Assembly (NCBI GenBank): GCA_973895155.1
Contig: OZ316891.1
Location: 23,745,899-23,809,898, forward strand
DNA: 64,000 nt
Direction: 5' to 3'
Source of the DNA: Marsupella aquatica
Taxonomy: Eukaryota > Plantae > Marchantiophyta
The notes beneath the pieces were generated by a model. That model had not been told where the DNA came from. It saw nothing but the letters and a program-made list of their open reading frames with translations, and made no database searches. Every line of letters starts with the position of its first letter. Within the stretch, counting starts at the first letter, position 1. Both the position numbers and the translations under genes were made by a program. Below, one piece after another: positions 6,908 through 64,000 of this stretch.

Positions 6908-9900
6908 TGTGATGCCTAGACAGGAATCACTCGGCCGGTTAAGTGGGTAAAGCAGGAAGGCACCCTAGGAACACCTTAGTATAGGGACAAAACAAGGAAA
7001 ATATAAACAATTAGGGGCAACCATGGAACCCGGGCAGAGGCCGGAGGTAAGGCTGAGGGTGAAAACCCGATTAGGGTTAGGGCGCGTTAAGCGTCGGCGG
7101 CTAGGAAGGATCAACGGGAAGAAGGACCGGCAGAGGAGAGGGGTAAGGAGCGCTTGCAGGAGATGGTGGCTCATTTGCGAGCACGAACTAGGCAGACGAC
7201 TACGGGAGGCCAACTACTGTCAGCTGCTTAGGCAAGCACTCGGGGAGAGAATAGATACCGACAATCGACCTAAGGAGGGTATGAGCAATGTCAATCAAGC
7301 GGCACATTTCTGGGGATGCCTGTTCGAACGGGCAACTGAGTACATCAAGACTTACGAGGACGAGGAGTCAGAAAGGGCAGCTCGAGAACGGCAGGAGCTC
7401 GCTCGATTGTGGGAGCTGCAAAAGACGGCTTTCTTAGGAGGCGAACTCATCAAGGACGAGTTCCTGTGGACGCCTACTTCCAATCAACTCGACGATCTTC
7501 TGTTTTGCAAAGACAGCGTCGTCGGCATCCGAGAGGCCATCAAGAACTGCAATGACATACACTGGGAATTAAAGGGTAGCACGGAAAGATGGACCCAGGC
7601 AACGGTGCTAGGAGAAACCTCCACGGCAGCAGAGATGAAGAGGAAGGGGGCCGTCAACGATGAAGCCACCCCGGCAAAAAGAACGAGGTCGGCGGCACCA
7701 AAGAGGCCAGCCGAGCAGCAGAGCAGGAGGCAGGGAGAAGCCGAAGAGGAGGAGGTCGATCCCATCAAGGCCATTCCAACCAGGGATGACACCTGGAAGG
7801 GCTGGGCGGCAACCCTACCGGTGGAGGTGCAACTACATTTTGCACGGGAGGAGGATGCATGCTTTACGGCCATGCAGACCAAGAAGTACCAAGGCTTCAT
7901 GGCCGGATCCGGCTTAGAGGCCTTTGTAAGATTACCATGGCTGAAGCCGGAGGTACCGGAGTCAGACCTATTAGAATTCGTGGGGTCATGGGAACCCGAG
8001 ACCAATTGCACGAGGATATATGGGAAGGATTTCTATCTTACTCCCAAGGTAATTGCCGAAGTGTTTGGCTTGCCGATAGGCAATAAGACCAAAGTTGATA
8101 CCAGGAAGACCTTGCCTGACAAGGAGTTCCGGTCGTTCCCCGGGCCATCAACGAAGAATGGCTTCTTCCGGAACACCTGCACCAACCCGCACATAGGAGA
8201 GATGATCGACTTCTTGCGGGTGACCATGCATTGTAACTTGCCGAGGGCAGAGATCGGCAAGGCACAGGTCTATCTGGCAGAAAGGCCAGACCCAAGCCGG
8301 GACTACAACGGGTACCTCCTCAACCAATTGAAGAAGATCTTAAAGGAGGAGCAGCAGGTAATCGGCATGGGGAGCGTGTCGCGGCTTGGCTATCACATGC
8401 CGCTGTTGTGCCGGTATGCCAGAGGTCAGACTTTTGCCCCGGTACTTCCCCTGCAGGTAAGGGCACCCGAGGAAGCTCCAACGCCGAGGCCGTTGGCTGA
8501 GAAGCCTCAACCACCTGTTAGTCCTACGATCGAGCAGGTGTTTAGGCCCAGGAAGGAAGACTTGCCGATGCAGCAACCAGGCATGCAGAGTCTGCTGAAA
8601 CTACTGGAGAAAGAAAAGAAATCAACATCGGCAACAACAACGGCAACGGCAACAATGCAGGACACTACTACAGAGGTAGGCCTACACCGGCTCACAAGAG
8701 AAAACCCCTTTGCTGGAGACAAGGAGAGAATCAGGCCGGAATCCAAGCCAGGTGTTCGAATGTACGTGGGAACCTCAAGCTCCGAATCTGAGGCAGAATT
8801 GCCTGAAGCTCCTACCGACGAAGAGGAGAGGGAGAAGCCGGACGTCCAAGAGGTAGAGGAGGCAGTGGAGGACTGCAGCCATGATAATTCCGGCTATGGG
8901 TCGGACCATCACGTTCCAGGAGTAAGGACCTGTGGCCGGTTTGTCCCCACACTTCCAAGGGTAGTGCGAGGGGACCCCAACCAGCAGAGTAGCCCTGAGT
9001 CTCCCCCACCAGATGTTGCTCCCCCGAGCTTCGACGGCATAAAATAGACGGTGCAGGAATTTCAGGAGCGAATCAAGCAGGAGGAGGAGGCCGCCCTGGC
9101 TAAGGAAAAGGATTTACCAGGAGGAGATTGGCCGGAGGACATCAGGCGGCTAGCCGAAAAAGGAAGCAAACCTCTAGCCACGATTGAAGAGATCCGCAGG
9201 ACGGCTTGGGAGCAGAGGCCACGATGGGCGATGCCGATCACTTCTACTTACTCCACCTACGCTAAGAATAGAGCCATGGAGTATGGTGAGATGTGTGGGG
9301 AACTTGCGCTCGGCATCTTTGGAGAGGAGTTGGAGGTAGGACCCTTTTTCCATAGGGAGCAGTTGGAGAAGCACCAATTAGAAGAAGCGGTGGCTTTAGA
9401 GAGAAGCAAGAAGGACGAGGTCATTCGGCGGCTTAGGAGGATGGAAGCCGAGATTGAAGATCTAAGGGCGGCCAAGAAAGCCCAAGATGAACTGCGGATT
9501 AAACGACATGAGCTGAACATCATGCAGGGGCAGTTGGACACCGCGCAGGCTGATAATCAGAATATCAAGGATAAACTGACTCAGACGTAGGAAGAGTTGG
9601 CCGACACGATCAAAGAGAGGGAGAAGTGGAAGCAAGAGCTGAAGAATACAGAGGAGGCCCACATAACAGCCAACAGCCGGGCCATGGCGGAGACCCAAAG
9701 AAAGGAATGGGCGTTGAAAGGGGAGCTCGAGAAAATCCGCGGAGCCCTTGAGCAGAAGGAGGTCGAGTTAGGGAAATCCTATCAAGGGATTATGGCACTG
9801 CAGCAGGAGCTTGCGTCCCTGACGGCCAGCTTCAAGGCCGACCTAAGGGAGAAGGACGAGATGCTTGAACAGACTTACGCCAAGATGAACTAGATGGAGT

Positions 9901-11543
9901 CTGTCATCATTGCAGAGCTCGACAAGGAGCTAAGAGCAACCCAGGAGGAGAGGGCTACCTTGAAGAAGGAATTGGAGGAAGCCCACAGGGAGCAGGAGGA
10001 GGCCAAAAACGAGCTGGAGGGGGCACGTAAGGACCTGGATGAAACCCAAGAGGAGTTGGAGGAAATCACGAGGAAGATGGAGAACCTACAGCGGCGGGCC
10101 GACAACCAAACAGAGCGGCTGAAGAAACAAGCCGCAGTATTTAAATGCTTAGCTGCAGCAGGTCCATCTCCCGTTGGGACAAACCAGTTACCAGGGGTGG
10201 TAATTGCCGAAGGACAAGCCGCGCCACCTGCACCAGTGCCGGAAGTAAGTGGGAAGGGGAAGGGACCAGCTGCCGAGCCACCAACGAAGAAGAAGCGGAA
10301 ACCTTCAGGGTCAAGGAGTAATACGACTTCACAGGCCGTGGTGATCAAGGAGGTAGACCCAGCACCGACCCCAGACAGGGTCACGGCTAGGGATCCAACT
10401 ACCCTAGGGGAAGGGGAGGCCAAAGCCGAGGGAGTGGCTGAGGCCGAAGCCGTGGGTATTGCCGAGGCCGGTGTCGAGGCTGAAGCCGAAGGTGGACCCA
10501 GTCAGGCCGATGGAGAGTTGACTCAGTCAAGGGCAGGTAATCTGTCAGAGAATGAACCTACGGCAGTGGCTGAGGAGGAAGCGTTGGGGGCGTCCATTAA
10601 GGATCCACCACCGGTGTCGTGACGGTGCAAGGGCGCCGTTCCTTTTAGGGAGGGCGGACGTGGAGGGAGGAGGCGTGAGTGGGCAGGGCGGGCACGGATC
10701 TCCACGTTTAGGATTAGGATCAGAACCAGGAGCGGCCCTGACACTTAGCTTAGTGGGATTGCGGTCCCACTGGTAGGAGCAACACTTGTGCTCCTGCCTT
10801 GCTGTACATAGGTAGATTCGGGCAAGTAGATTACTGTTAAGTAGATTAGGCTTACGATGCAAAGAATGGCGGATCCACTACCAGGATAAGTACCTGGGCA
10901 GCGGGGAGCTCAGGGCCTCTTCTTTAGCAAGTTTTTAGTTTGCACCAGCCGGGCTGGGATCAAGTAGTACGAGAAGCTCTCGGTTAGTCATACAATGACC
11001 CTTGTGTATATTCATGTTTCCTCATGCCTAAGAGCTGAATAGAGTTGGCCTCACGGCTTAGTTCGCAGAACTTGTGTATGAGATGTACTGTTTGTATGGC
11101 AAGTGCATGGTATGACTCAGTCAGAATGAGTCATTTTGCTATTTGTGTGTCGCATTAACTTGTGTGAAGAGTGCCCACATCAACAGAAGGAAGGAAAGTA
11201 AGCAGGGGAGTGAGAGTTGGATGTGTCGAGCTGAGAGAGGTCTTAGCGGCTTAACCAAGCCTATTGGGGATCATTCCGGCGGCGGAATCCAAACATACCT
11301 AACAAGACGGAGGGGAAGACAGGGGAAGACAGGGGAAGGCCTATATTAGGCCGGCTACGTATCTCATGACCCGATGAAGGATCTGTCCAGTATATGTGTG
11401 TAAAATGTTAATAGTAGTAGTAGAAGGTTAGCAGCGTCCCATGCCGCTAAGCCGCGGAAACGGCCTCGCCAAGCACGAAACCTGCGGGAATCGGCTTGAG
11501 CTGGGGGGTTTCTTGGGTTTAGGGAGCCATGGGACGCACCACA
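6908..11543 (+). repeat. 5' LTR of copy C (4636 bp)
   Basis: TGTGATGCC...GCACCACA; direct repeat of 17765..22391; followed by the PBS. Confidence 0.96.
7023..10622 (+). pseudogene. LTR-encoded ~1199-codon protein (plant-transposon/Athila-ORF1-like central domain, long coiled coil, NLS-like KKKRK); three in-frame TAG stops
   Basis: ORFs 7023, 9051, 9597 and 9894 share one frame. Stops at 9045, 9588 and 9891 are CAG in other copies. The motif GLEAFVRLPW..LLEFVGSW..IYGKDFYLTPKVIAEVFGLP resembles Transposase_32/ATHILA-type accessory domains (by eye). Confidence 0.85.
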
Positions 11544-11547
11544 GTTT

Positions 11548-11567
11548 TGGCGCTAGATGGAGGGGGC
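11548..11567 (+). promoter_or_regulatory. primer binding site of copy C (probably tRNA-Asn)
   Basis: TGGCGCTAGATGGAGGGGGC after a 4-nt spacer from the LTR end. Confidence 0.8.
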
Positions 11568-11612
11568 ATTTCTTAAGCCGTGAGATATGAAGTTAGAAAG
11601 GAAGCATAGGTA

Positions 11613-14606
11613 ATGACTGACCTTACGCCGAGGGAAGAAAGAGTGATTCAACGGGAGAGAGCTCGACTGCAGCAGCTCGCCGGGTGGCATGATACACAGC
11701 GACTGAGAGGGGCAGAAAGAGCTGGTAGCTCCGAAACTGGAAGTGGCGTCGAAGAAGACATACCAGAAGAAGAGTCGGTAAGGAGAAGTGAGTCTCCAAC
11801 CGACATGGGGGAACCAGAGGCACGGCCAGACGAGAGGCCAGGGACCAGATTGAGCCAGTGGTCGCGCATACATTACAAGGCATTTCATGGGAGAGGAGAT
11901 GAGGATCCGGACGAATGGTTGGATGATTTCGAGGGAACCGCTGCAGCAAATGGAGAATCGGCCATCAAGATGCAGATTCTTCCCGGCCTGTTCAAGGGTG
12001 AGGCTAGGCCTTGGTACAGAGCATTAGATGTGGAAGATCAAGCCATCTGGGATATCTTCAAAACACTCTTTGTTAAGGAGTTTCGACCCATTGGAACTTC
12101 AGAACTAGCAGTGCTGAAGTTGGGACAACTTCGGTTCAAGGAGAACAAATCCTTCAGGAAGTTCTTGCAACGCTTTCAGAAACTGGTAAGACGTACAAAG
12201 ACCAATGCATCTGAAGGTATGCAACTTCAATGGTTGGTGAATGCTTTGCCACAGAAGATGAGTTTTGCAATTAGGAAGGAGAACCCGGAGACTTTAGCCG
12301 AAGCAATTAAGGATATTCAATTATACATTAATGCAGATATCACAAGCCGGAAGAAACAGCTTAAGTCTGAGAGTTCCTCATCAGAGGAGGGATCACCCCA
12401 TAAGAAAAAAGATAAGAAGAAGAAACATTCCAAGAAGTCTAGAAGTGATAAGTCAAGCTCGGATAGTGGGAGTAGCAAGAGTGAGTCATCTTCTAGTTCT
12501 GAAGAAGAAAAAACTAGGAAAAGGAAGGGCAGAAGGAGAGGGAAGACGAAAGTCAAGATGGAGGCTAAGCCACCAGATAACATCGTAGCCCTTACCGAGC
12601 AACTTAAGGCTATCATTGCAGAGGTAAAACCAAAGAAGAAGGTAGTACAGGAGGATAGCTCTGTATGGTGTGCCTTATGTTATAAAACCGGACACCATAA
12701 AGATGCGTGTCCTAAGCTTAATACTAATCATGTTCGACATGTGGCCGAGATCAGACCATGTCAGGGAGAAGTAGAGTACTTTTTGGGAGATGCCGCTGAT
12801 AGTGTTTTCGGCATCAGTGAGACTGGAGCACGAGACCTATCCAACAGACCTGCATCTCTGTGGTCAGGATTAAGGAACAATCCAGGAGAGATGTATCCTC
12901 GGATTATTCAGAACCCGTCAGTACCTCCTAGGCCGAATGTGCAAAGATTTGCGGCGTGCTATAATTGTGGTCAACCTGGCCATTTTGCTAGAGAATGCCC
13001 GAATGCACGCAAACAGGGTGATGGACAACCAGCTCAGCTATGTATGGGATGCCGACAGGAAGGTCATATGCTAGGGCAATGTCCTACTTGGTTGGCAGGC
13101 CTGGCCGCAAATCATAAGCTTTTGCCGATCAAGATCTTACCGCCAGGTACTACCCCCGGAGGAGTTCAAATCAACCACATCGAACTAGGATGGCAAGAGG
13201 ATGCCGAGGCAGAGTTTGTACCATCTGATGATGAGGCCGAAGCCCTATCAACCTTCTCAGAGGAGGATTTAGATCATGATTGCTACCGGGTCTCTACTCG
13301 ATCTACCAGAAGGAAGGAAAGGTGGGATGGGCTGGCCAAAAATAAAGGGAAGGTTACGGAGGAAAGGATCGACTCTTCGTCAACATCAACAGAAGGAGAA
13401 GGGAGGGCTCCGGCAATACAGGTAAGCCATGAGCCCACCAGTGAAACCAATCCTTCACAAGATAGCGACTTCAATCGAGATCATCCTAAGTTGTTCTACC
13501 CCTCTGTTACGGCTAGTGTTAAGGAACAACTAAGAGAATTAGAAACCCTGGAGAATACCGAAGCCATTGCCAAGGATGTAAAACGAGCAAAAGCATTGTT
13601 TGCTTCGAAAGACCCAACAGCTGTGGAGACTAGCGTGGCAAAACTGGCCGAATCCAAGACGGAAACACCACCAGAAGAGAAGCCGATTGTTCCCTATGAC
13701 CTGGCTAAAGATGTACTAGAATCTAGAGTCTCGGCAACAGTAGGTCAACTATTGAAAAATAGCCCGTACTTCCGGAAGCAATTAAGGAAGGCTATTCCCG
13801 GCAAGCCGAGATTACCCAAGGTAGCAACCAGATCCGACGTACTAATGATAGAAGAAGATCAAGGAGCCCCAGCATTACCATTAATGATTCAAGGAGAATT
13901 ATTAGTACGGGTACCCATCGATGGAGGATCAGGGGTATGTATTATGATTGATTCAACAGCAAAAGGGTGGGGTCTAACACCGGAAATGACTGGAAGAGTG
14001 TTGAACATGGCCAATGGATATCAGGTCATTCCGACGGGAGTGTTAACCGGCATCAAGACAGAGATAGGAGGTATCTTCTTTAGCATTAACTATGTAGTAA
14101 TGAAGCCGGTAAATCCTACGTCATTTCGGCTATTGATTGGTAGGCCATGGCTGTACCTAGCCGTGGTAATAGAAGATTGGGGTAAAAAGCAGTTCACTTT
14201 CGGGACCCCCTCTATCACGGTATCCTGGGACACTAAGGATGACCGTAGGAAAAGCATAAGGGAAGTAGATGGGTACGATAGTGGACTGGAGTCAGCCGAT
14301 GAAGTACGTTGGTTAGAATGCCTCACTAACCTAACCGAAGAAGGTGTCTTTGGACCAGAGGTACCCCCCAGCGGATTATGGCAAGAACCAATGGAAGGTG
14401 ACTTGGAAGAAGAAGACGAAGAGGTCGAGGACTACTTTACAATAGAATCCACCTTTTTAGCTGCAATCCCGGAGGAAGTAAAGGATGTATACCAATTGGA
14501 TGAAACGGCTAAGTGGGGAGCAGTAGCAGGGACAGTGGATTTTCTGCAGGCGTTGTGGCAGAGCCGACGGGGTCCACAACGCCATCGATCATCGGCAAGG
14601 AATTAA
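11613..14606 (+). CDS. gag: Gag-protease polyprotein (997 aa)
   Basis: Retrotransposon gag region (EDPDEWL...WY...W..F...F), three CCHC knuckles (CALCYKTGHHKDAC, CYNCGQPGHFAREC, CMGCRQEGHMLGQC) and an aspartic protease (IDGGSG...LLIGRPWL). Confidence 0.93.
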   Translation: MTDLTPREERVIQRERARLQQLAGWHDTQRLRGAERAGSSETGSGVEEDIPEEESVRRSESPTDMGEPEARPDERPGTRLSQWSRIHYKAFHGRGDEDPDEWLDDFEGTAAANGESAIKMQILPGLFKGEARPWYRALDVEDQAIWDIFKTLFVKEFRPIGTSELAVLKLGQLRFKENKSFRKFLQRFQKLVRRTKTNASEGMQLQWLVNALPQKMSFAIRKENPETLAEAIKDIQLYINADITSRKKQLKSESSSSEEGSPHKKKDKKKKHSKKSRSDKSSSDSGSSKSESSSSSEEEKTRKRKGRRRGKTKVKMEAKPPDNIVALTEQLKAIIAEVKPKKKVVQEDSSVWCALCYKTGHHKDACPKLNTNHVRHVAEIRPCQGEVEYFLGDAADSVFGISETGARDLSNRPASLWSGLRNNPGEMYPRIIQNPSVPPRPNVQRFAACYNCGQPGHFARECPNARKQGDGQPAQLCMGCRQEGHMLGQCPTWLAGLAANHKLLPIKILPPGTTPGGVQINHIELGWQEDAEAEFVPSDDEAEALSTFSEEDLDHDCYRVSTRSTRRKERWDGLAKNKGKVTEERIDSSSTSTEGEGRAPAIQVSHEPTSETNPSQDSDFNRDHPKLFYPSVTASVKEQLRELETLENTEAIAKDVKRAKALFASKDPTAVETSVAKLAESKTETPPEEKPIVPYDLAKDVLESRVSATVGQLLKNSPYFRKQLRKAIPGKPRLPKVATRSDVLMIEEDQGAPALPLMIQGELLVRVPIDGGSGVCIMIDSTAKGWGLTPEMTGRVLNMANGYQVIPTGVLTGIKTEIGGIFFSINYVVMKPVNPTSFRLLIGRPWLYLAVVIEDWGKKQFTFGTPSITVSWDTKDDRRKSIREVDGYDSGLESADEVRWLECLTNLTEEGVFGPEVPPSGLWQEPMEGDLEEEDEEVEDYFTIESTFLAAIPEEVKDVYQLDETAKWGAVAGTVDFLQALWQSRRGPQRHRSSARN
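14537..14596 (+). promoter_or_regulatory. putative -1 ribosomal frameshift signal (G GAT TTT plus stem-loop/pseudoknot)
   Basis: Heptamer in the gag frame, 5-nt spacer, 10-bp stem 14549-14558/14574-14583. Conserved in copy B. Confidence 0.7.
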
Positions 14607-17600
14607 ATACCAAGGGATCGGCATACAAGCCGATTACGAGGGCAGAACAAATTGAGGCCCTATTAGAAGCCGAGAGAGCACAGCGGCCTAACTCTCAGGA
14701 GCAAGAAGTGGATGAGATGGACAGACACGATCCAGAGCCAAGGCAGGAAGGGGAGCCGACCACTAATTCAAAACCGAATAGACCGGTAAGGGGACAATCT
14801 ATGGACACCAAGGAAGGGACCGACTCGGCTAGTCCAGCCGAGATCCCAGTTTATGGAGGTATGAGATTAGAGAGACTGGAAGCCGAACTGGACCCGAATT
14901 TGAAGAAGCAGATTAATATGATCCAAGCACGGCAATATCGGAAGCTCGACTTAGGAGAGGGAAGAGAACTGAACTTAGGGAGAAACCTAGCACCTGAGCT
15001 CGAGAAAGAGATCAATGACTTATTGATTGAATTTCAGGATGTGTTTGCATGGAGTCACCAAGATCTAAAGGGAGTAGATCCAACACTAGGGGAACATCGA
15101 ATTGATCTCATGTTAGGAGCCAAATCATTTCGACAACCAATTCGAAGGATGAACCCGAAGTATTCCCTGCTGGTCAAAACAGAAATCGACAAACTAGTGG
15201 AAGCTGGATTCATCACTCCAGTCCTGCATTCAGACTGGGTGTCTCCAATTGTGATAGTTCCCAAGAAAGCTGGACCCGATGGTAAACCCAAGATCCGGGT
15301 TTGTCAGGATTACAGGAAGCTGAATGAAGCAACATTAAAAGACCATTTTCCTTTACCGTTTACTGATATGGTACTAGACATGGTAGCCAGTCATGAACTA
15401 TATTCATTCATGGATGGATACTCTGGTTATAACCAAATCAGGATTCAGCAGGAAGACCAAATCAAGACGGCCTTCATCACGGAATGGGGGATCTATGTCT
15501 TCAATCGTATGCCGTTTGGACTCTGCAACGCACCAGCTATGTTCCAACGATTAATGGGGAACATTTTTCATGATTACTTGAGAAAGTTCATGGAAATCTT
15601 CATTGATGACTTTGCAGTATTCGGGAAGGCATCGAAACATGCTAAATACCTCAGGAAAACCTTCATGAGATGTAGAGAGGTGGGTCTCAAGTTACACCCA
15701 GATAAATGTTTTTTTGCAGTAACCGAGGGGGTGCTACTAGGTCACAAGGTATCAAGGAAGGGCATTGAGATTGACAAAGGTAAGCTAGCAGTATGGCTAG
15801 ATATCATGCAACCTAAGAACATAAAGGATGTAAGATCCTTCTTGGGATGCATTGGTTACTATCGCCGGTTCATCAAGGATTTTGCCAAGCTGGCTTTACC
15901 ATTAACCAATATGCTCAAGGCAGGAGCAGACTTCGAACCCACACCCGAACGAGTCACAGCGGTGGTAGAATTGAAGCAGATGTTAGTAGAGGCCCCAGTC
16001 ATGATAGCACCGGACTGGAACAAAGATTTTCATGTTTTTGTAGATGTCTCGGGTTTCTGTATTGGCTCAGTACTAAGTCAGTTGGATGAGAAAGGAAGGG
16101 ACCATCCCATATACTTCGCAAGCCGTCAGCTTGCCGATGCCGAACGGAACTACTCTACCACGGAAAGAGAAGCATTAGGAGTCATTTATTCTTGTAAAAA
16201 GTTTAGGCATTATTTACTAGGGTACAAGGTAATCTTTCATACTGATCATGAAAGTTTGAAGTACCTAGTCAATAAGCCGGACCTTACAGGCAGAGTAGCA
16301 AGATGGATTTTGCTATTACAGGAGTTTGACTATGAGCTGAGGATCAAGCCGGGAAAGTTACATGCCAATGCCAACTTCTTTTCAAGGATCACAGGTAAAC
16401 CTGCCACGGATTGCATCGATGATCGATTCCCCGACGAGGAGCTATTCGTTGTGGAAATAGCTGGTACATGGTACCCTGAGATTTTACAATTTCTCAGCAC
16501 TTCCAGATTACAGCCAGGATTAAGCCGAGAGCAAGCCGCAGTCTTTGTGCGGAAGGTCAGACAGTATCAGTGCATTAAAGGCATACTGCACAAGCATGGA
16601 ATCAACGGCACGATTCAAAGATGTTTGGAAAAGAGAGAGGTAAAATGAGTCCTACGGGCCATGCATGGAGAGGAGGCCGGAGGACATTTTGCCCCAGTAA
16701 CCACGTCTAAGAAGATATTAAATGCCGGTTACTGGTGGCCCACCTTGCACAAAGATGTCTATCAGTTTATCAAACAATGCGATCCTTGTCAACGAGCGGG
16801 AGGACCAAGGGCGTCCACCAGGCATCCACTGCACCCTATTCTACCTCTGGCACCATTCGAGAAGTGGGGTATTGATTACATTGGACCTCTGAAACCACTG
16901 ACCCACCCTCGACGGAACAAGTACATAATCCTGGCTACGGATTATGCAACTAAATGGGTAGAGGCCAGACCAACAACGAAGGATGATGCAATTACTACGG
17001 CTAGATTCATGTATGAGCAGATCTTCACCAGGTATGGAGCACCCCTAGAATTAGTTAGTGATAGAGGAACCCATTTTTTGAATGATATAATTAGTCGTTT
17101 AAATGAGCAGTATTTAGTTAAACATAGGCCTACTACTCCCTACCATCCAAAGGCAAACGGGTTGACAGAACGAGCAAACGCAATCATAGGAAAGATATTG
17201 AACAAGACAGTAGCTCAGAACAAACTCGATTGGGATGATAAATTGTTTGCTGCTGTTTTTGCTTACAATCTTGCCTATAAATCCACTACCGGTCATACAC
17301 CCTTCTTAACCTTTGGACAAGAAGCCCTGGTACCCATGCAACTTGAGATACCGACATTTCAAGTTACAATTGAGGAAAGAGCCTCAGCGGAGGAGAGCCT
17401 AAAGGAGCGAGAATATAGGTTAGAAGCTTTAGAGGAAGCGAGAATGATTTCAGCCGAGAGAGTAGAATATAGACAGAATATCATGAAGCAGCAGTATGAT
17501 AAAAGGTTAAAAGTAGTTAGTATTCATATCGGTGATCTTGTGCTACTTTATGACAGTAGGTATAGTAGGTTTCCAGGAAAGCTTTACACTCGCTGGTTAG

Positions 17601-17751
17601 GACCCTTTAGAGTAACCATGATGTTCCCCAATGGCTCCGTACAATTGGCCAACATTACGGGAGAGGTATATCCAGTTCGCATCCATTATGACCGCCTCAA
17701 GAAATACTATATGGACGAAGATGAAGTTGTTCGCGAGGACGCTTCACAATT

Positions 17752-17761
17752 AAGTGGGGAG
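17752..17761 (+). promoter_or_regulatory. polypurine tract of copy C
   Basis: AAGTGGGGAG, 3 nt before the TG of the 3' LTR and inside the IN coding sequence. Confidence 0.75.
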
Positions 17762-17764
17762 CTA

Positions 17765-20700
17765 TGTGATGCCTAGACAGGAATCACTCGGCCGGTTAAG
17801 TGGGTAAAGCAGGAAGGCACCCTAGGAACACCTTAGTATAGGGACAAAACAAGGAAAATATAAACAATTAGGGGCAACCATGGAACCCGGGCAGAGGCCG
17901 GAGGTAAGGCTGAGGGTGAAAACCCGATTAGGGTTAGGGCGCGTTAAGCGTCGGCGGCTAGGAAGGATCAACGGGAAGAAGGACCGGCAGAGGAGAGGGG
18001 TAAGGAGCGCTTGCAGGAGATGGTGGCTCATTTGCGAGCACGAACTAGGCAGACGACTACGGGAGGCCAACTACTGTCAGCTGCTTAGGCAAGCACTCGG
18101 GGAGAGAATAGATACCGACAATCGACCTAAGGAGGGTATGAGCAATGTCAATCAAGCGGCACATTTCTGGGGATGCCTGTTCGAACGGGCAACTGAGTAC
18201 ATCAAGACTTACGAGGACGAGGAGTCAGAAAGGGCAGCTCGAGAACGGCAGGAGCTCGCTCGATTGTGGGAGCTGCAAAAGACGGCTTTCTTAGGAGGCG
18301 AACTCATCAAGGACGAGTTCCTGTGGACGCCTACTTCCAATCAACTCGACGATCTTCTGTTTTGCAAAGACAGCGTCGTCGGCATCCGAGAGGCCATCAA
18401 GAACTGCAATGACATACACTGGGAATTAAAGGGTAGCACGGAAAGATGGACCCAGGCAACGGTGCTAGGAGAAACCTCCACGGCAGCAGAGATGAAGAGG
18501 AAGGGGGCCGTCAACGATGAAGCCACCCCGGCAAAAAGAACGAGGTCGGCGGCACCAAAGAGGCCAGCCGAGCAGCAGAGCAGGAGGCAGGGAGAAGCCA
18601 AAGAGGAGGAGGTCGATCCCATCAAGGCCATTCCAACCAGGGATGACACCTGGAAGGGCTGGGCGGCAACCCTACCGGTGGAGGTGCAACTACATTTTGC
18701 ACGGGAGGAGGATGCATGCTTTACGGCCATGCAGACCAAGAAGTACCAAGGCTTCATGGCCGGATCCGGCTTAGAGGCCTTTGTAAGATTACCATGGCTG
18801 AAGCCGGAGGTACCAGAGTCAGACCTATTAGAATTCGTGGGGTCATGGGAACCCGAGACCAATTGCACGAGGATATATGGGAAGGATTTCTATCTTACTC
18901 CCAAGGTAATTGCCGAAGTGTTTGGCTTGCCGATAGGCAATAAGACCAAAGTTGATACCAGGAAGACCTTGCCTGACAAGGAGTTCCGGTCGTTCCCCGG
19001 GCCATCAACGAAGAATGGCTTCTTCCGGAACACCTGCACCAACCCGCACATAGGAGAGATGATCGACTTCTTGCGGGTGACCATGCATTGTAACTTGCCG
19101 AGGGCAGAGATCGGCAAGGCACAGGTCTATCTGGCAGAAAGGCCAGACCCAAGCCGGGACTACAACGGGTACCTCCTCAACCAATTGAAGAAGATCTTAA
19201 AGGAGGAGCAGCAGGTAATCAGCATGGGGAGCGTGTCGCGGCTTGGCTATCACATGCCGCTGTTGTGCCGGTATGCCAGAGGTCAGACTTTTGCCCCGGT
19301 ACTTCCCCTGCAGGTAAGGGCACCCGAGGAAGCTCCAACGCCGAGGCCGTTGGCTGAGAAGCCTCAACCACCTGTTAGTCCTACGATCGAGCAGGTGTTT
19401 AGGCCCAGGAAGGAAGACTTGCCGATGCAGCAACCAGGCATGCAGAGTCTGCTGAAACTACTGGAGAAAGAAAAGAAATCAACATCGGCAACAACAACGG
19501 CAACGGCAACAATGCAGGACACTACTACAGAGGTAGGCCTACACCGGCTCACAAGAGAAAACCCCTTTGCTGGAGACAAGGAGAGAATCAGGCCGGAATC
19601 CAAGCCAGGTGTTCGAATGTACGTGGGAACCTCAAGCTCCGAATCTGAGGCAGAATTGCCTGAAGCTCCTACCGACGAAGAGGAGAGGGAGAAGCCGGAC
19701 GTCCAAGAGGTAGAGGAGGCAGTGGAGGACTGCAGCCATGATAATTCCGGCTATGGGTCGGACCATCACGTTCCAGGAGTAAGGACCTGTGGCCGGTTTG
19801 TCCCCACACTTCCAAGGGTAGTGCGAGGGGACCCCAACCAGCAGAGTAGCCCTGAGTCTCCCCCACCAGATGTTGCTCCCCCGAGCTTCGACGGCATAAA
19901 ATAGACGGTGCAGGAATTTCAGGAGCGAATCAAGCAGGAGGAGGAGGCCGCCCTGGCTAAGGAAAAGGATTTACCAGGAGGAGATTGGCCGGAGGACATC
20001 AGGCGGCTAGCCGAAAAAGGAAGCAAACCTCTAGCCACGATTGAAGAGATCCGCAGGACGGCTTGGGAGCAGAGGCCACGATGGGCGATGCCGATCACTT
20101 CTACTTACTCCACCTACGCTAAGAATAGAGCCATGGAGTATGGTGAGATGTGTGGGGAACTTGTGCTCGGCATCTTTGGAGAGGAGTTGGAGGTAGGACC
20201 CTTTTTCCATAGGGAGCAGTTGGAGAAGCACCAATTAGAAGAAGCGGTGGCTTTAGAGAGAAGCAAGAAGGACGAGGTCATTCGGCGGCTTAGGAGGATG
20301 GAAGCCGAGATTGAAGATCTAAGGGCGGCCAAGAAAGCCCAAGATGAACTGCGGATTAAACGACATGAGCTGAACATCATGTAGGGGCAGTTGGACACCG
20401 CGCAGGCTGATAATCAGAATATCAAGGATAAACTGACTCAGACGCAGGAAGAGTTGGCCGACACGATCAAAGAGAGGGAGAAGTGGAAGCAAGAGCTGAA
20501 GAATACAGAGGAGGCCCACATAACAGCCAACAGCCGGGCCATGGCGGAGACCCAAAGAAAGGAATGGGCGTTGAAAGGGGAGCTCGAGAAAATCCGCGGA
20601 GCCCTTGAGTAGAAGGAGGTCGAGTTAGGGAAATCCTATCAAGGGATTATGGCGCTGCAGCAGGAGCTTGCGTCCCTGACGGCCAGCTTCAAGGCCGACC

Positions 20701-22391
20701 TAAGGGAGAAGGACGAGATGCTCGAACAGACTTACGCCAAGATGAACCAGATGGAGTCTGTCATCATTGCAGAGCTCGACAAGGAGCTAAGAGCAACCCA
20801 GGAGGAGAGGGCTACCTTGAAGAAGGAATTGGAGGAAGCCCACAGGGAGCAGGAGGAGGCCAAAAACGAGCTGGAGGGGGCACGTAAGGACCTGGATGAA
20901 ACCCAAGAGGAGTTGGAGGAAATCACGAGGAAGATGGAGAACCTACAGCGGCGGGCCGACAACCAAACAGAGCGGCTGAAGAAACAAGCCGCAGTATTTA
21001 AATGCTTAGCTGCAGCAGGTCCATCTCCCGTTGGGACAAACCAGTTACCAGGGGTGGTAATTGCCGAAGGACAAGCCGCGCCACCTGCACCAGTGCCGGA
21101 AGTAAGTGGGAAGGGGAAGGGACCAGCTGCCGAGCCACCAACGAAGAAGAAGCGGAAACCTTCAGGGTCAAGGAGTAATACGACTTCACAGGCCATGGTG
21201 ATCAAGGAGATAGACCCAGCACCGACCCCAGACAGGGTCACGGCTAGGGATCCAACTACCCTAGGGGAAGGGGAGGCCGAAGCCGAGGGAGTGGCTGAGG
21301 CCGAAGCCGTGGGTATTGCCGAGGCCGGTGTCGAGGCTGAAGCCGAAGGTGGACCCAGTCAGGCCGATGGAGAGTTGACTCAGTCAAGGGCAGGTAATCT
21401 GTCAGAGAATGAACCTACGGCAGTGGCTGAGGAGGAAGCGTTGGGGGCGTCCATTAAGGATCCACCACCGGTGTCGTGACGGTGCAAGGGCGCCGTTCCT
21501 TTTAGGGAGGGCGGACGTGGAGGGAGGAGGCGTGAGTGGGCAGGGCGGGCACGGATCTCCACGTTTAGGATTAGGATCAGAACCAGGAGCGGCCCTGACA
21601 CTTAGCTTAGTGGGATTGCGGTCCCACTGGTAGGAGCAACACTTGTGCTCCTGCCTTGCTGTACATAGGTAGATTCGGGCAAGTAGATTACTGTTAAGTA
21701 GATTAGGCTTACGATGCAAAGAATGGCGGATCCACTACCAGGATAAGTACCTGGGCAGCGGGGAGCTCAGGGCCTCTTCTTTAGCAAGTTTTTAGTTTGC
21801 ACCAGCCGGGCTGGGATTAAGTAGTACGAGAAGCTCTCGGTTAGTCATACAGTGACCCTTGTGTATATTCATGTTTCCTCATGCCTAAGAGCTAAATAGA
21901 GTTGGCCTCACGGCTTAGTTCGCAGAACTTGTGTATGAGATGTACTGTTTGTATGGCAAGTGCATGGTATGACTCAGTCAGAATGAGTCATTTTGCTATT
22001 TGTGTGTCGCATTAACTTGTGTGAAGAGTGCCCACATCAACAGAAGGAAGGAAAGTAAGCAGGGGAGTGAGAGTTGGATGTGTCGAGCTGAGAGAGGTCT
22101 TAGCGGCTTAACCAAGCCTATTGGGGATCATTCCGGCGGCGGAATCCAAACATACCTAACAAGAAGACAGGGGAAGACAGGGGAAGGCCTATATTAGGCC
22201 GGCTACGTATCTCATGACCCGATGAAGGATCTGTCCAGTATATGTGTGTAAAATGTTAATAGTAGTAGTAGAAGGTTAGCAGCGTCCCATGCCGCTAAGC
22301 CGCGGAAACGGCCTCGCCAAGCACGAAACCTGCGGGAATCGGCTTGAGCTGGGGGGTTTCTTGGGTTTAGGAAGCCATGGGACGCACCACA
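17765..22391 (+). repeat. 3' LTR of copy C (4627 bp)
   Basis: Direct repeat of 6908..11543 with scattered substitutions and a 9-bp indel in the GAAGACAGGG repeat. Confidence 0.96.
17880..21479 (+). pseudogene. LTR-encoded protein, 3' LTR copy of C; stops at 19902, 20382 and 20610
   Basis: Same frame throughout; near-identical to 7023..10622. Confidence 0.85.
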
Positions 22392-24905
22392 CTTCTCCCT
22401 TAGGTCGGCCTTGAAGCTGGCCGTTAGGGATGCAAGCTCCTGCTGCAGCGCAATAATCCCTTGATAGGATTTCCCTAACTTGGCCTCCTTCTGCTCAAGG
22501 GCTTCGCGGCTTTTCTCGAGCTCCCCCTTCAACGCCCATTCCTTTCTTTGGGTCTCCGCCATGACCCGGTTGTTGACTGCTATATGGGCCTCCTCTGCGT
22601 CTCTCAGCTCCTTCTTCCATTTCTCCCTGTCCTTGATTGCGTCGGCCAATTCTCCCTGGGTCTGAGTCAGTTTATCCTTGATAATCTGACTATCAGCCTA
22701 CGCTGTGTCCAACTGCCCCTGCATGATGTTCAGCTCATGCCGCTTAATCCGCAGTTCATCTTGGGCTTTCTTGGCCGCCCTTAGATCTTCAATCTCGGCT
22801 TCCATCCTCCTAAGCCGTCGGATGACCTCGTCCTTCTTGCTTCTCTCTAAAACCACCGTTTCATCTAATTGGTGCTTCTCCAACTGCTCCCTATGGAAAA
22901 AGGGTCGGGGAGAAACATCTGGTGGGGGAGACTCAGGGCTACTCTGCTGGTTGGGGTCCCCTCGTACTACCCTTGGAAGTGTGGGGATAAACCGGCCACA
23001 GGTCCTTAATCCTGGAACGTGATGGTCCGACCCATAGCCGGAGTTATCATGGCTGCAGTCCTCCACTGCCTCCTCTACTTCTTGGACTTCCGGCTTCTCC
23101 CTCTCTTCTTTGTCGGTAGGAGCTTCAGGCAATTCTGCCTCAGATTCAGAGCTTGAGACTCCTATGTACATTCGAACACCCGGCTTGGATTTTGGCCTGA
23201 TTCTCTCCTTATTTTCGGTAAATGGGTTTTCCCTTCTAAGTCTGCTTAGGTTGACCTCTGGGGCAGTGTCCTGCATTGTTGCCGTTGCCATTGTCGTTGC
23301 TGATCTCTTTTCTTTCTCCATTAGTTTCAGCAGATTCTGCATGCCTGGTTGCTGCATTGGCAAGTCTTCCTTCCTTGGCCTAAACACCTGCTCAATCGTA
23401 GGGCTAACAGGTGGTTGAGGCTTTTCTGCTACCGGCCTTGGTGCTGGAGCTTCCTCGGGTGTCCTTACCTGCAGGGGAAGTACTGGGACAAAGGTCTGAC
23501 CTCTGGCATACCGGCACAATAGCGGCATGTGATAGCCAAGCTGCGACACGCTCCCCATGCCGATTACCTGCTGCTCCTCCTTTAAGATCTTCTTCAATTG
23601 GTTGAGGAGGTGCCCGTTGTAGTCCCGGCTTGGGTCTGGCCTCTTTGCCAGATAGACCTGTGCCTTGCCGATCTCTGCCCTCGGCAAGTTACAATGTATG
23701 GTCACCCGCAAGAAGTCGATCATCTCTCCTCTGTGCGGGTTGGTGCAGGTGTTTCGGAAGAAGCCATTCTTCGTTGATGGCCCGGGGAACGACCGGAACT
23801 CTTTGTCAGGCAAGGTCTTCCTGGTACCAACCTTGGTCTTATTGCCTATCGGCAAGCCAAACACTTTGGCAATTACCTTGGGAGTAAGATAGAAATCCTT
23901 CCCATATATCCTCGTGCAATTGGTCTTGGGTTCCCATGACCCCACGAATTCTAATAGGTCTGAATTCGGCACCTCCGGCTTCAGCCATGGTAATCTTACA
24001 AAGGCCTCTAAGCCGGATCCGGCCATGAAGCCTTGGTACTTCTTGGTCTGCATGGCCGTAAAGCATGCATCCTCCTCCCGTGCAAAATGTAGTTGCACCT
24101 CCACTGGTAGAGTTGTCGCCCAACCCTTCCAGGTGTCATCCCTGGTTGGAATGGCATTAATGGGATCGACCTCCTCCACTTTGGCTTCTCCCTGTCTCCT
24201 GCTCTGCTGCTCGGCTGGCTTCGTTGGTGCCGCCGACCTCGTTCTTTTTGCCGGGGTGGCTTCATCGTTGACGGCTCCCTTCCTCTTCATCTTGGCTGCC
24301 GTGGAGGTTTCTCCTAGCACCGTTGCCTGGGTCCACCTTTCCGTGCTACCCTTCAATTCCCAATGTATGTCGTTGCAGTTCTTGATGGCCTCTCGAATGC
24401 CGATGATTCTGTCTTCGCAAAACAGAAGATCGTCGAGCTGATTGGAAGTAGGAGTCCACAAGAACTCGGCCTTGATGAGTTCGCCTCCTAAGAAAGCCGT
24501 TTTCTGCAGCTCCCACAATCGAGCGAGCTCCTGTCGTTCTCAAGCTGCCCTTTCTGATTCTTCATCCTCGTAAGTCTTGATGTACTCAGTTGCCCGTTTG
24601 AACAGGCATCCCCAGAAATGTGCCGCTTGATTGACGTTGCTCATACCCTCCTTAGGTTGATTGTCGGTATCTACTCTCTCCCCGAGTGCTTGCCTAAGCA
24701 GCTGACAGTAGTTGGCCTCCTGTAGTCGTCTGCCTAGTTCGTGCTCGCAAATGAGCCACCATCTCCTGCAAGCGCTCCTTACCCCTCTCCTCTTCCGGTC
24801 CTTCCTCCCGTTGATCCTTCCTAGCCATCGACGCTTAGCGTGCCCTAACCCTAATCGAGTTTTCACCCCCAGCGTCCTTACCTCCGGCCTCGGCCCGGGT
24901 TCCAT
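22392..24905 (-). pseudogene. N-terminal and central part of the LTR-encoded protein, copy A
   Basis: ORFs 24540..24905, 22698..24518 and 22392..22649. In-frame deletion of roughly 100 codons near 22905 (PPPDVSPR|PFFHRE). Confidence 0.87.
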
Positions 24906-25020
24906 AGTCGCCCCTAATTGTTTATATTTTCCTTGTTTTGTCCCTATTCTAAGGTGTTTCCAGGGTGCATTCCTGCTTTACCTACTTAACTGGCCGAGTG
25001 ATTCCTGGCTAGGCATCACA

Positions 25021-25248: not shown

Positions 25249-28200
25249 TGTGGTGCGTCCCATGGCTCCCTAAACCCAAGAAACCCCCTAGCTCAAGCCG
25301 ATTCCCGCAGGTTTCGCGCTTGGCGGGGCCGTTTCACCGGCTTAGCGGCATGGGACGCTGCTAACCTCTTCTACATCTATTAACATTTTACACACATATA
25401 CTGGACAGATCCTTCATCGGGTCATGAGATATGAAGCAGGCCTACTCTAGGCCTTCCCTTGTCTTCCTCTCCTTCTGGTTAGGTATATTTGGATTCCGCC
25501 GCTGGAATGATCCCCAATAGGCTTGGTTAAGCCGCTAAGACCTCTCTCAGCTCGACACATCCAACTCTCACTCCCTTGCTTACTTTCCTTTCCCTATTAG
25601 TTGATGTGGGCACTCTTCACACAAGTTAATGCGACACACAAATAGTAAAATGACTCCTTCTGACTGAGTTATACCATGCACTTGCCATACAAACAGTACA
25701 TCTCATACACAAGCTCTGCGAACTAAGCCGTGAGGCCAACTCTATTCAGCTCTTAGGCATGAGGAAACATGAATATACACAAGGTCACGGTATAACTAAC
25801 CGAGAGCTTCTCTTAGTACTTGATCCCAGCCCGGCTGGTGCAAACTAAAAACTTGCTAAAGAAGAGGCCCTGAGCTCCCCGCTGCTTAGGTACTTATCCT
25901 GGTAGTGGATCCGCCTAATTCTTTGCAGCGTAAGCCTAATCTACCTGACAGTAATCTACTTGCCCGAATCTACCTATGTACAGCAAGGCAGGAGCACAAG
26001 TGTTGCTCCTACCAGTGGAACCGCAATCCCACTAAGCTAAGTGTCAGGGCCGCTCCTGGTCCTGATCCTAATCTTAAACCTGGAGATCAGCGCCCGCCCG
26101 GCCCACTCACGCCTCCTACCTCCACGTCCGCCCTTTCTAAAAGGAACGGCACCCTTGCACCGTCACGATACCGATGGTGGATCCTCAATGGACGCCCCCA
26201 ACACTTCCTCCTCAGCCACTGCCGTTGGCCCGCCTACTGACAGATTACCTGCCCTTGACCGAGTCAACTCTCCATCGGCCTGACTGGGTCCACCTTCGGC
26301 TTCGGCCTCGGCACCGGCCTCCGCAATACCCACAGCTTCGGCCTTAGCCACTCCCACGGCTTCGGCTTCCCCTTCTTCTAGGGTAGTTGGATCCTTAGCC
26401 GTGACCCTGTCTGGGGTCGGTGCTGGGTCTACCTCCTTGATCACCACGGCCTCTGAAGTCGTATTACTCCTTGACCCTGAAGGTTTCCGCTTCTTCTTCG
26501 TTGGTGGCTCTACAGCTGGTCCCTTCCCCTTCCCACTTACTTCCGGCACTGGTGCAGGTGGCGCGGCTTGTCCTTCGGCAATTACCACCCCTGGTAACTG
26601 GTTCGCCCCAACGGGAGATGGACCTGCTGCAGCTAAGCATTTAAATACTGCGGCTTGTTTCTTCAGCCGCTCTGTTTGGTTGTCGGCCCGCCGCTGTAGG
26701 TTCTCCATCTTCCTCGTGATTTCCTCCAACTCCTCTTGGGTTTCATCCAGGTCCTTACGTGCCCCCTCCAGCTCGTTTTTGGCCTCCTCCTGCTCCCTGT
26801 GGGCTTCCTCCAATTCCTTCTTCAAGGTAGCCCTCTCCTCCCGGGTTGCTCTTAGCTCCTTGTCGAGCTCTGCAATGATGACAGACTCCATCTGGTTCAT
26901 CTTGGCATAAGTCTGATCGAGCATATCGTCCTTCTCCCTTAGGTTGGCTTTGAAGGTGGCCGTTAGGGACGCAAGCTCCTGCTGCAGCGCAATAATCCCT
27001 TGATAGGATTTCCCTAACTTGGCCTCCTTCTGCTCAAGGGCTCCGCGGCTTTTCTGGAGCTCCCCTTTCAACGCCCGTTCCTTTCTTTGGGTCTCCGCCA
27101 TGGCCCGGTTGTTAGCTGTTATGTGTGCCTCCTCTGCATTCCTCAGCTCTTGCTTCCACTTCTCCCTCTCTTTGATCGCATCGGCCAACTCTCCTTGGGT
27201 CCGCGTCAGTAGATTCTCGATCATCCGGTTATCAGATTGTGCGGTATCCAACTGGCCCTGCATGATATTTAGCTCATGCCGCTTAATCCGCAGCTCATCT
27301 TGGGCTTTCTTGGCTGCCCTCAGGTCCTTGATTTTGGCTTCCCTTTCCCTAAGCCGACGGATGACCTCGTCCTTCTTGCTTCTTTCCAAGGCCACCGCTT
27401 CTTCCAATTGGCGCTTCTCCAACTGCTCCCTATGGAAAAAGGGTCCTACCTCCAATTCCTCCCCAAAGATGCCGAGCGCAAGTTCCCCACACATCTCACC
27501 ATACTCCCTGGCTCTATTCTTAGCGTAGGTGGAGTAAGTAGAAGTGATCGGCATCGCCCATCGCGGCCTCTGCTCCCAAGCCGTCTTGCGGGTCTCTTCA
27601 ATCGTGGCTAGAGGTTTGCTTCCTTTTTCGGCTAGCCGCCTCATGTCCTCCGGCCAATCTCCTCCTGGTAAATGCTTTTCCCTAGCCAGGGCTGCTTCCT
27701 CTTCCTGCCTGATTCGCTCCTGAAATTCCAGCGCCGTCTGTTTTATGCCGTCAAAGCTCAGGGGAGCAACATCTGGTGGAGGAGACTCAGGGCTACTCTG
27801 CTGGTTGGGGTCTCCTCGTACTACCCTTGGAAGTGTGGGGATAAACCGGCCACAGGTCCTTACTCCTGGAACGTGATGGTCCGACCCATAGCCGGAGTTA
27901 TCATGGCCGCAGTCCTCCACTGCCTCCTCTACTTCTTCTACTTCCGGCTTCTCCCTCTCTTCTTTGTTGGTAGGAGCTTCCGGCAATTCTGCCTCAGATT
28001 CAGAGCTTGAGACTCCGGTAGAGGGGTCTTCCCTTCTAAGTCTACTTAAGTTGACCTCTGGGGCAGTGTCATGCATTGTTGCCGCTGCCGTTGTTGTTGC
28101 CGATGCCGATCTCTTTTCTTTCTCCAACAGCTTCAGCAGACTCTGCATGCCTGGTTGCTGCATCGGCAAGTCTTCCTTCCTTGGCTTAAACACCTGCTCA

Positions 28201-32800: not shown

Positions 32801-33083
32801 CCCTTGCCTGTCTATCCGGTTTTGAATTGGTGGTCGGCTTCCCTTCCTGACTCGGCTCTGGATTCTGTCTGTGCATCTCATTCACCTCTTCTTCCTGAGG
32901 GTCAGGCCGCTGTGCTCTTCCGACTTCTAATAGGGCCTCGATTTGTTTTGCCCTCGTAATCGGCTTGTATGCCGATCCCTTGGTTTTTAACTCCTTGCCG
33001 ATGATTGATGGCGTTATGGATCCTGCTGGCTCTGCCACAACGCCTGAGGAAAATCCACCGCGGCCTCCGGTATTGCTCCCCAC
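29814..33083 (-). pseudogene. pol: Pol (RT-RH-IN) of copy B with several CGA>TGA stops
   Basis: ORFs 32661..33083, 30798..32483 and 29814..30635 in one frame; same motifs as copy C. Confidence 0.94.
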
Positions 33084-63992: not shown

Positions 63993-64000
63993 GCCTGTGC

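Follow-up and report, generated by a model that had tools for sequence, protein, structure and literature searches.

In a stretch of 64,000 nucleotides from the liverwort Marsupella aquatica (contig OZ316891.1, positions 23,745,899 to 23,809,898 of the forward strand; called the window in the following) we find a long gene lying wholly inside the 4.6-kb long terminal repeat (LTR) of a Ty3/gypsy retrotransposon, element C, and comparison of the copies indicates that this LTR gene has evolved under purifying selection. In kind it belongs with the known accessory open reading frames (ORFs) of gypsy elements; what is unusual is its position and its size within the LTR. As the preliminary description of this DNA had proposed, the frame is in sense orientation and does not leave the LTR: it runs from the ATG at 7023, 115 nt after the TG of the LTR, to the TGA at 10620-10622, 921 nt before the CA, and comprises 1,199 codons in C and about 1,180 codons in the related copies B and D. 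The LTR is composed as follows.

6908..11543, forward strand: 5' LTR of element C, 4,636 bp, with the TG at 6908 and the CA at 11543
7002..7007, forward strand: TATA(A/T)A, the sole one in the LTR, kept in 5/5 copies retaining the region
7023..7280, forward strand: likely leader, open in frame and neutral, containing the ATG at 7023 and, out of frame, a further ATG at 7163 that is present in C, A, and D
7281..10622, forward strand: LTR-resident ORF, 1,113 codons from the likely start, with three internal stops in the 5' copy of C
10623..11543, forward strand: non-coding remainder of the LTR on its 3' side, which runs collinear with the corresponding part of the solo LTR F described below; the two have a 29-nt block in common (11274-11301)

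A self-comparison of the window revealed a nest of one retrotransposon family, and the frame aligns in all six LTR copies of this family (both LTRs of C, both LTRs of B, the 5' LTR of A, and the solo LTR D) as well as in a small remnant, E. The earlier statement that all these LTRs hold the gene is therefore correct as far as the alignment goes, but two copies are incomplete: the 5' LTR of B, which is also split by an insertion, has lost 258 nt including the ATG at 7023 and the TATA box, and 105 codons are missing from the copy of A. The insertions and deletions starting inside the ORF are of four kinds in the six copies (+3, -54, -6, and -315), all of them keeping the frame as had been claimed; those outside the ORF are mostly frame-shifting, and remnant E has one -1 gap at its edge. 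All 14 internal stops, at 12 positions, are found where most other copies have CAG, CGA, or TGG, which bears out their earlier interpretation as deamination products. When the region was shuffled 200 times with its dinucleotides preserved, the best frame contained at least 19 stops, compared with three observed.

The two LTRs of each element allowed us to separate changes fixed at the time of replication from changes acquired after insertion. Fixed differences between C and B, i.e., those common to both LTRs of each element, amount to 113.5 synonymous and 84.5 non-synonymous changes over 1,033 codons, corresponding to a ratio of non-synonymous to synonymous rates (dN/dS) of 0.20, or of 0.28 with transitions weighted 4:1. 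Thus this check, which had been suggested earlier and was run here on the copies of the window, does not give a value near 1 between elements. Within the LTR pairs of single elements there are 23 synonymous, 44 non-synonymous, and 7 stop changes (dN/dS 0.76-0.88), and the contrast between pre- and post-insertion changes has a Fisher p of 2e-4. The core domain of the protein (codons 261-470) shows 18 synonymous and only 2 non-synonymous changes (dN/dS 0.03-0.04; p=4e-6), codons 87-210 show 17 and 6, and linker, coil, and tail have dN/dS values of 0.2-0.6; for comparison, dN/dS is 0.23 for gag-pro and 0.16 for pol. At sites split 2:2 among the four insertions the differences are biased toward the third codon position (15/12/50). 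Summed over the whole frame we count 180 synonymous and 175 non-synonymous changes and 6 stops.

Hardly credible in view of these data is the notion that the frame is a passenger, a relic, or a frame open by chance in LTR DNA rich in purines, now without any role. None of the six copies is intact and the first 86 codons are neutral, as such a frame would have it; the strong constraint on the core, the in-frame indels, the third-position bias, the 19 relatives, and the confidently predicted fold (see below) all argue against it, and the contrast between pre- and post-insertion changes refutes it. The copies also differ in their grouping along the LTR: up to about 9550 the prevailing grouping of the four insertions is AC|BD, beyond that point it is AD|BC (8015-10345, C coordinates), and from this switch we read recombination between lineages inside the LTR gene. 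This mosaicism gave no placement of the U3, R, and U5 parts of the LTR.

The gene had been described as starting 115 nt after the TG. The frame is indeed open from the ATG at 7023, but codons 1-86 are unselected, with 10 synonymous and 21 non-synonymous changes and 1 stop in five copies, like neutral change (p=1.0). The TATA box at 7002, likely the promoter of the ORF, is located 21 nt upstream of the ATG at 7023; because the usual distance from TATA box to start exceeds 21 nt, this ATG appears too close to be used. Moreover, the starts of related proteins (MSGEGTARYFW, MSAIQFW) are in register with MSNVNQAAHFW at 7281, weakly so by hhalign (probability 29%). The unselected codons 1-86, the TATA spacing, and the register with the relatives together make ATG 7281 the likely start; the protein would then likely have 1,113 aa and 7023..7280 would likely be a 5' leader. 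A histone-tail-like peptide, ARTRQTT, in the -1 frame of the leader was considered and rejected, as this frame shows 23 non-synonymous versus 9 synonymous changes.

From its N-terminus the protein consists of a 105-aa domain, a basic linker, a 210-aa core, a Pro/Glu-rich linker, a coil of about 250 residues, the motif KKKRK, and an acidic tail.

7281..7600, forward strand: N-terminal domain of about 105 aa, whose similarity to the N-terminal ends of the Calypogeia relatives and of the solo LTR F ORF is weak
7638-7682, forward strand: bipartite-like motif KRK...PAKR
7794..8420, forward strand: core domain, about 210 aa, open in copy C, with VANC21 as best structural match and a predicted local distance difference test score (pLDDT) of about 90 over most of its length
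9351..10124, forward strand: coiled-coil-like region, proline-free and charge-rich, about 250 aa, with approximate limits mapped from copy D
10287..10301, forward strand: KKKRK, a motif resembling a nuclear localization signal (NLS)

The coiled coil and the NLS-like motifs reported earlier are thus recovered as a region of about 250 residues and two basic motifs, KKKRK and KRK...PAKR, which we take from general knowledge to be NLS-like. There is no transmembrane stretch, the highest 19-residue Kyte-Doolittle mean (0.98) lying in an Ala/Glu repeat, and in this respect the protein is not env-like. An Athila-ORF1/Transposase_32-like domain, which had also been proposed, is not seen by Pfam: two pieces of the window ORF gave no Pfam match to Transposase_32 (PF20167) or ATHILA (PF03078) at E<=1, none of the 19 relatives gave one at E<=0.1, and PMD (PF10536) matched neither the window ORF nor the 19 relatives. 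The only Pfam matches of the protein are weak ones to coiled coils. In the Atlas search, clusters of Transposase_32 and ATHILA were found at 0.89, under its bar of 0.9, and are leads only.

An exhaustive search found these 19 relatives at E<=0.001 with 25-47% identity, and a profile search found 10, all named Calypogeia fissa 'unnamed protein', the longer of which share the order of parts. Single-sequence word searches gave no relative among 5,455 candidates, nor among 6,692 in the 'longer' search, and a metagenome scan with the core domain confirmed 0 of 41 stretches. A scan with the integrase yielded 20 loci with 32-79% identity; the profiles of the core and of the N-terminal domain had no significant match in any of these 20 loci, most of them short. 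Motif fragments (LG..VNWA / GRKVDWAQ) which resemble the end of the core are seen in the window at 63450-63998 (reverse strand), upstream of a gag-like ORF, and in the loci L015-L017 at about 9100-9350 (forward strand), behind a truncated integrase; with profile E values of 1.4 and 13 they are not significant.

A fold model built from a 28-sequence alignment reaches the pLDDT of about 90 in the core, compared with 37 for the single-sequence model. Foldseek against the PDB placed VANC21 bound to DNA at rank 1 (E 0.31, probability 0.82), the second rank having a probability of 0.03. By VIA-align VANC21 was again first, of 48,161 chains (Z 8.5, rmsd 3.8, 199 residues aligned, model 173-380), and a second structural look gave Z 8.8. 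No other chain reached Z>=8; among the rows listed VANC21 alone lies on the core, and the remaining 49 fall on the N-terminal helices only. These three comparisons are three views of one predicted model, and together they give moderate support to a VANC21-like fold of the core. A library of viral structures gave no match at E<=0.001. Transposase_32 has been linked to Athila ORF1 (PMC11728184), VANC has been described as structurally homologous to MAIN, a PMD protein, and VANC and the Athila domain have both been modeled as coiled-coil pentamers (PMC13547354). The earlier Athila-ORF1/Transposase_32 guess and the VANC match therefore probably name one superfamily.

The element carrying the gene and the other members of its family in the window are the following.

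6908..22391, forward strand: element C, full-length non-chromovirus Ty3/gypsy element with the target-site duplication (TSD) CTTCT on both sides, sitting in the LTR of copy A
11548..11565, forward strand: primer binding site (PBS)-like sequence TGGCGCTAGATGG, 4 nt 3' of the 5' LTR of C, presumably a match to tRNA-Asn
11613..14606, forward strand: gag-protease ORF of C, with Retrotrans_gag and zinc knuckle by Pfam and a protease motif read by eye and absent from the Pfam matches
14513..17776, forward strand: pol of C with reverse transcriptase, RNase H, and integrase by Pfam and one internal stop
17765..22391, forward strand: 3' LTR of C with the second ORF copy, which has three stops, one of them also in the 5' LTR
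25249..42953, reverse strand: element B, with its 3' LTR at 25249-29825, its 5' LTR at 36053-37946 and 40526-42953, and the TSD TTACC, inserted in remnant E
22392..25020, 5779-6907, and 2271-2833, reverse strand: 5' LTR of element A in three pieces; the gag of A leaves the window at position 1
51987..56567, reverse strand: solo LTR D, TSD GTGCT, with the whole ORF, which has two early stops and then 1,058 open codons

The two LTRs of C are 99.4% identical. Element C has the LTRs bounded by TG...CA, the TSD, PBS, polypurine tract, and order of gag, protease, reverse transcriptase, RNase H, and integrase of a Ty3/gypsy element. No chromodomain was among the Pfam matches of its 375-aa integrase piece, which ends at the LTR, so that C does not group with the chromoviruses, and Pfam scans of gag-pro, pol, and the LTR ORF gave no second RNase H, the mark of Tat elements with an additional RNase H (aRH; TatI-III, Ogre, Retand). 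The TSDs of C, B, and D have 5 bp, whereas Phygy and Selgy require 4 bp (NCGN for Phygy) and carry no extra ORF. The 5-bp TSD and the single RNase H therefore exclude Phygy, Selgy, and the aRH-bearing Tat elements (table in PMC6317226 supplement 3) and are compatible with Athila or with a liverwort Tat devoid of the aRH; the liverwort Tat Z2 is likewise without an extra RNase H (PMC13468544). Athila elements are defined by a 5-bp TSD, the lack of an extra RNase H, and a tRNA-Asp, tRNA-Asn, or tRNA-Ala primer, and carry their extra ORF internally, in the stretch from pol to the 3' LTR; element C deviates in having it in the LTR. Its pol crosses the purine tract, which directly precedes 17765, and ends in the first 12 nt of the 3' LTR (from 17765), so that nothing separates pol from the LTR.

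Two other integrase loci may be mentioned here. A relative with 61% identity (L001:880-945) shows the same pre-LTR motif (GTTCGCGAGGACGC, purine tract, TG) directly behind pol, on a contig too short to show an LTR ORF, and a more distant one (L009:7076-7831, forward strand) has a 252-codon frame shortly 3' of pol without a match to the profiles. In sequencing runs, contigs of X2, X4, and X6 (three studies, three coded organisms) span 30/30 bins of LTR and internal region, and at the three stops of the 5' LTR of C the X6 contigs carry non-stop letters. The family is thus present beyond this assembly, although one of the runs with the best cover may derive from the source sample itself. Among 14 runs no RNA run with the family was listed, and runs X12 and X13 have almost no cover over the LTR; neither observation bears on expression. 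The summed contig depth over the ORF was higher than over gag (3.9x in X2, 3.1x in X4), a value which was not used because contig depth is not copy number.

A second, diverged family related to that of C is represented in the window by the solo LTR F.

37947..40525, reverse strand: solo LTR F, 2,579 bp, TG...CA, TSD GAATG, inserted in the 5' LTR of B; no full element is seen in the window
40059-38846, reverse strand: ORF of solo LTR F, about 400 codons, with a frame change near 39960 and one stop

LTR F has a single TATA box at 40167, with the first ATG 108 nt later, so that in both LTR families there is one TATA per LTR, upstream of the ORF. The start of its ORF compared with the alignment of the Calypogeia-type N-terminal domain gave an hhalign probability of 67% (pair E 5e-5), a second segment 14-21%. 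When the profile of this domain was run over the whole window, all six rows fell on F or on the N-terminal domain of the family, none being significant alone (E 0.5-6). The ORF ends in a coiled coil and a basic C-terminus (KRARH), and an Atlas search with a piece of it gave no usable match. The non-coding 3' parts of F and C align with a score of 112.5, compared with a mean of 64 and a maximum of 93.5 in 100 shuffles; the 3' part of another LTR, H, gave no alignment with C above shuffles. LTR H (2.9 kb, TG...CA, TSD AGAAG, 2834-5778, reverse strand) is a solo LTR in the LTR of A whose longest frame has 111 codons, and serves as a non-coding control. Because F, a second related family, has a gene in its LTR but no core domain, the coding LTR is likely a trait of a lineage in which the core is optional.

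The explanation we favor, and which has in our judgment about an even chance of being right, is that the product of the LTR gene is a nuclear trans-activator or anti-silencer which would keep the copies of its own family transcribable against host methylation. The gene would be transcribed from the TATA box at 7002 and translated from the ATG at 7281; the product, a predicted nuclear coiled-coil oligomer with a VANC/PMD-like domain binding DNA or chromatin, would enter the nucleus, oligomerize, bind DNA or chromatin of the family, and act in trans on family copies. One stop is common to both LTRs of C and lies ahead of the coiled coil. Since both LTRs share it, the parent of C likely transposed with a truncated gene, and for this reason an action in trans is likely. 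A nuclear accessory or anti-silencing role had been suggested earlier; it now has moderate independent support from the predicted VANC21 fold, while the role itself we still infer.

As to the origin of this arrangement, the gene may descend from an Athila/Tat-type extra ORF with its own promoter which once occupied the space from pol to the LTR and became part of U3 when the site of plus-strand priming shifted to the end of pol; such a capture of a 3' extra ORF is suggested by the missing spacer between pol and LTR and by the single TATA box upstream of the ORF in both LTR families. In Grande a 3' extra ORF with its own promoter has been described (PMC7264820). Any LTR, solo or paired, could then express the gene on its own for as long as methylation-driven C-to-T changes have not broken it. 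The layout claimed earlier, with the gene doubled at each insertion and kept in the solo LTR, is what we see, but an escape from host inactivation is not supported, as every copy in the window including solo LTR D has been broken by C-to-T changes of the methylation type.

The pattern of post-insertion CG changes is also pertinent. They affect 2 of 99 sites in the non-coding LTR and 30 of 327 in the ORF (p=0.016). VANC-type protection covers non-coding regions (PMC10398659), and the rarity of CG changes in the non-coding LTR is the pattern such protection would give.

Several observations weigh against an anti-silencing protein of the VANC type. The CG contrast is one of several comparisons, has no counterpart at CHG sites (p=0.59), is weaker in A and D (p=0.08 for all non-coding sites, 0.03 for the 3' part alone), and could be produced by any promoter. 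No copy in the window is intact, each having 1-3 stops, solo LTR D with two early ones, and because all six have been broken mostly by CG and CHG transitions the body of the ORF was unprotected. The targets of VANC are tandem arrays of short motifs (PMC10398659); such an array is absent here, as no 6-8-mer is above shuffles in 10623-11612, where there is only a 10-nt unit in 2.8 copies. The structural match to VANC21 is moderate, with E=0.31, 9% identity, and a Z just above the 7-8 typical of models without a clear match, and no link at the sequence level emerged when the PDB was searched by sequence with two alignments, which gave 0 and 3 rows at chance level, none of them VANC21. The VANC-like core is absent from the related LTR F, and the placement of the ORF in U3 is inferred, with R/U5 standing as an alternative. 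Finally, a shared fold shows no function, and the PMD proteins of the host act in silencing rather than activation (PMC5418596).

Following this last point, the protein could be a self-limiting repressor like host MAIN/MAIL1 which restrains copy number or competing families, though we regard this as improbable. The same fold works in silencing in host PMD proteins (PMC5418596; PMC13547354), and solo LTRs could supply the protein long after the loss of the element. However, the replicating lineage shows purifying selection of the same strength as that on gag, which is easier to understand for a factor helping replication, and 36,107 contigs of run X2 fall on the element, suggesting many copies.

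In the search for target motifs the top 7-mer had 4 occurrences, a number matched by 35 of 200 shuffles, and CGGCTTA was dropped as candidate since it is not above shuffles. Rfam gave no match at E<=1 over 6908-11700, and a consensus RNA fold of the LTR end from three near-identical copies, with 1 of 124 pairs compensatory, was uninformative.

The position of the TATA box also permits another reading of the LTR, namely that the ORF belongs to R/U5 and thereby to the 5' end of the genomic RNA, which would start about 30 nt after the TATA at 7002, that the protein has a role in the RNA phase (export, packaging, or control of gag-pol translation), and that gag-pol is made from spliced RNA. The only TATA(A/T)A in either LTR family is upstream of the ORF, with none near the 3' end of the LTR, and Ogre and Tekay carry an extra ORF 5' of gag (PMC6317226 supplement 3; PMC3485330). 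Such an arrangement would, however, need a strong-stop DNA of 4.5 kb and an ORF of 1,100 codons before gag, the fold match is to a DNA-bound protein, and the missing spacer between pol and LTR fits the capture of a 3' ORF into U3 more simply; we therefore consider an R/U5 position unlikely.

Rather unlikely, too, is that the protein steers or scaffolds integration by binding chromatin or family DNA and tethering the integration complex, whereby nested clusters such as centromeres of the transposon type would arise. Three of the four readable family insertions (A, B, and C) are inside another LTR of the same family, the two other solo LTRs, F and H, are within family LTRs as well, and the integrase is without a chromodomain by Pfam. 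Transposon-cluster centromeres with young nested insertions on both strands have been described for 9 of 11 bryophytes (bioRxiv 10.64898/2026.09.17.752431), and elements of the Tat, Phygy, and Selgy type are enriched in predicted centromeres of Apopellia (PMC12885004). On the other hand, family LTRs fill much of the window and nesting is thus expected without targeting, solo LTR D lies in unrelated CACTA-like DNA, C entered the cluster despite its own truncated gene, and a single window cannot show a centromeric position. Positions 1-43117 of the window form a deep nest of one family on both strands, with A and B in remnant E, C and H in the LTR of A, and F in the LTR of B; this nest may be a centromere or pericentromere of the transposon type.

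Returning to the LTR gene and its proposed role as a nuclear anti-silencer, we compared it with known systems. Coding sequence in or overlapping U3 is known from MMTV sag, HIV nef, and foamy virus tas/bel, and Cassandra has a 5S domain in its LTRs. The retroviral genes likewise lie within the LTR and come in two copies per integration, but they are much shorter and vertebrate, whereas here about 3.3 kb of a 4.6-kb plant LTR encode an unrelated protein. Closest in kind are the extra ORFs of the OTA elements (Athila ORF1, PF03078, or Transposase_32, PF20167; the Ogre PMD ORF, PF10536; the Retand TRP28 ORF, PF04195), which are also long accessory ORFs of non-chromovirus gypsy elements with a folded domain, low-complexity linkers, a coiled coil, and NLS-like motifs. 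The literature places them in the internal region, either 5' of gag or in the stretch from pol to the 3' LTR (PMC7264820; PMC6317226; PMC11963269), while element C has its ORF wholly in the LTR, no spacer between pol and LTR, and no match to their Pfam models. For Retrosat2, with LTRs of 3.2 kb, an ORF0 is described upstream of gag-pol (PMC3485330). Searches of the full-text literature brought up no plant retrotransposon whose LTR contains a gene; the phrase search is blunt, and Repbase, Dfam, REXdb, and subscription journals were outside its scope.

VANC21 of Arabidopsis VANDAL21 (PDB 9LNJ/9LNK) superposes over about 200 residues with the predicted core, and both are accessory proteins of transposons with a coiled coil. 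VANC21 is encoded by MuDR-type DNA transposons and called dicot-specific (PMC13547354), here the gene is in a gypsy LTR; the LTR protein, known from sequence and model, shares 9% identity with it and has no tandem arrays of target motifs. MAIN/MAIL1 and PMD-A, which is Gypsy-encoded, would belong to the same fold family through the published match of VANC and MAIN (PMC13547354; PMC5418596). They are described from angiosperms (PMC5418596) and are likened to our protein via VANC only; the named relatives of our protein are from a liverwort.

LTRs count as non-coding, solo LTRs are regarded as dead ends, and where extra ORFs have been surveyed it is the internal region that is described. A selected LTR gene of 3.3 kb and a second LTR family of the same kind imply that annotation overlooks genes of this sort and that their copy number is that of the LTRs, not of the elements. 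The role of the accessory ORFs of retrotransposons is stated to be unknown (PMC7264820; PMC11963269), and the predicted VANC fold gives them a testable function. As the named relatives are from a liverwort, the finding also bears on the ancestry of the PMD, which Gypsy elements encode and whose origin was left open (PMC5418596), and on the proposal that VANC derived from host MAIN (PMC13547354). One may go further and speculate, with little expectation of being right, that a gypsy lineage of seed-free plants made its LTR a complete anti-silencing cassette of promoter, VANC-fold gene, and target sites, with solo-LTR recombination scattering the activators, and that the domain predates, and possibly is the source of, MAIN/MAIL1 and the VANC of DNA transposons of flowering plants.

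Elsewhere in the window there are pieces of CACTA-type transposases (Transposase_21, DUF4218, DUF4216) at 43696-51900 on the reverse strand and at 51551-58166 on the forward strand. Just upstream of such pieces and on the same strand, a 271-codon ORF with a SET domain is found at 49159-49974 (E 1.6e-5, above the Pfam cut-off), possibly a transposon-borne gene resembling those of histone methyltransferases.

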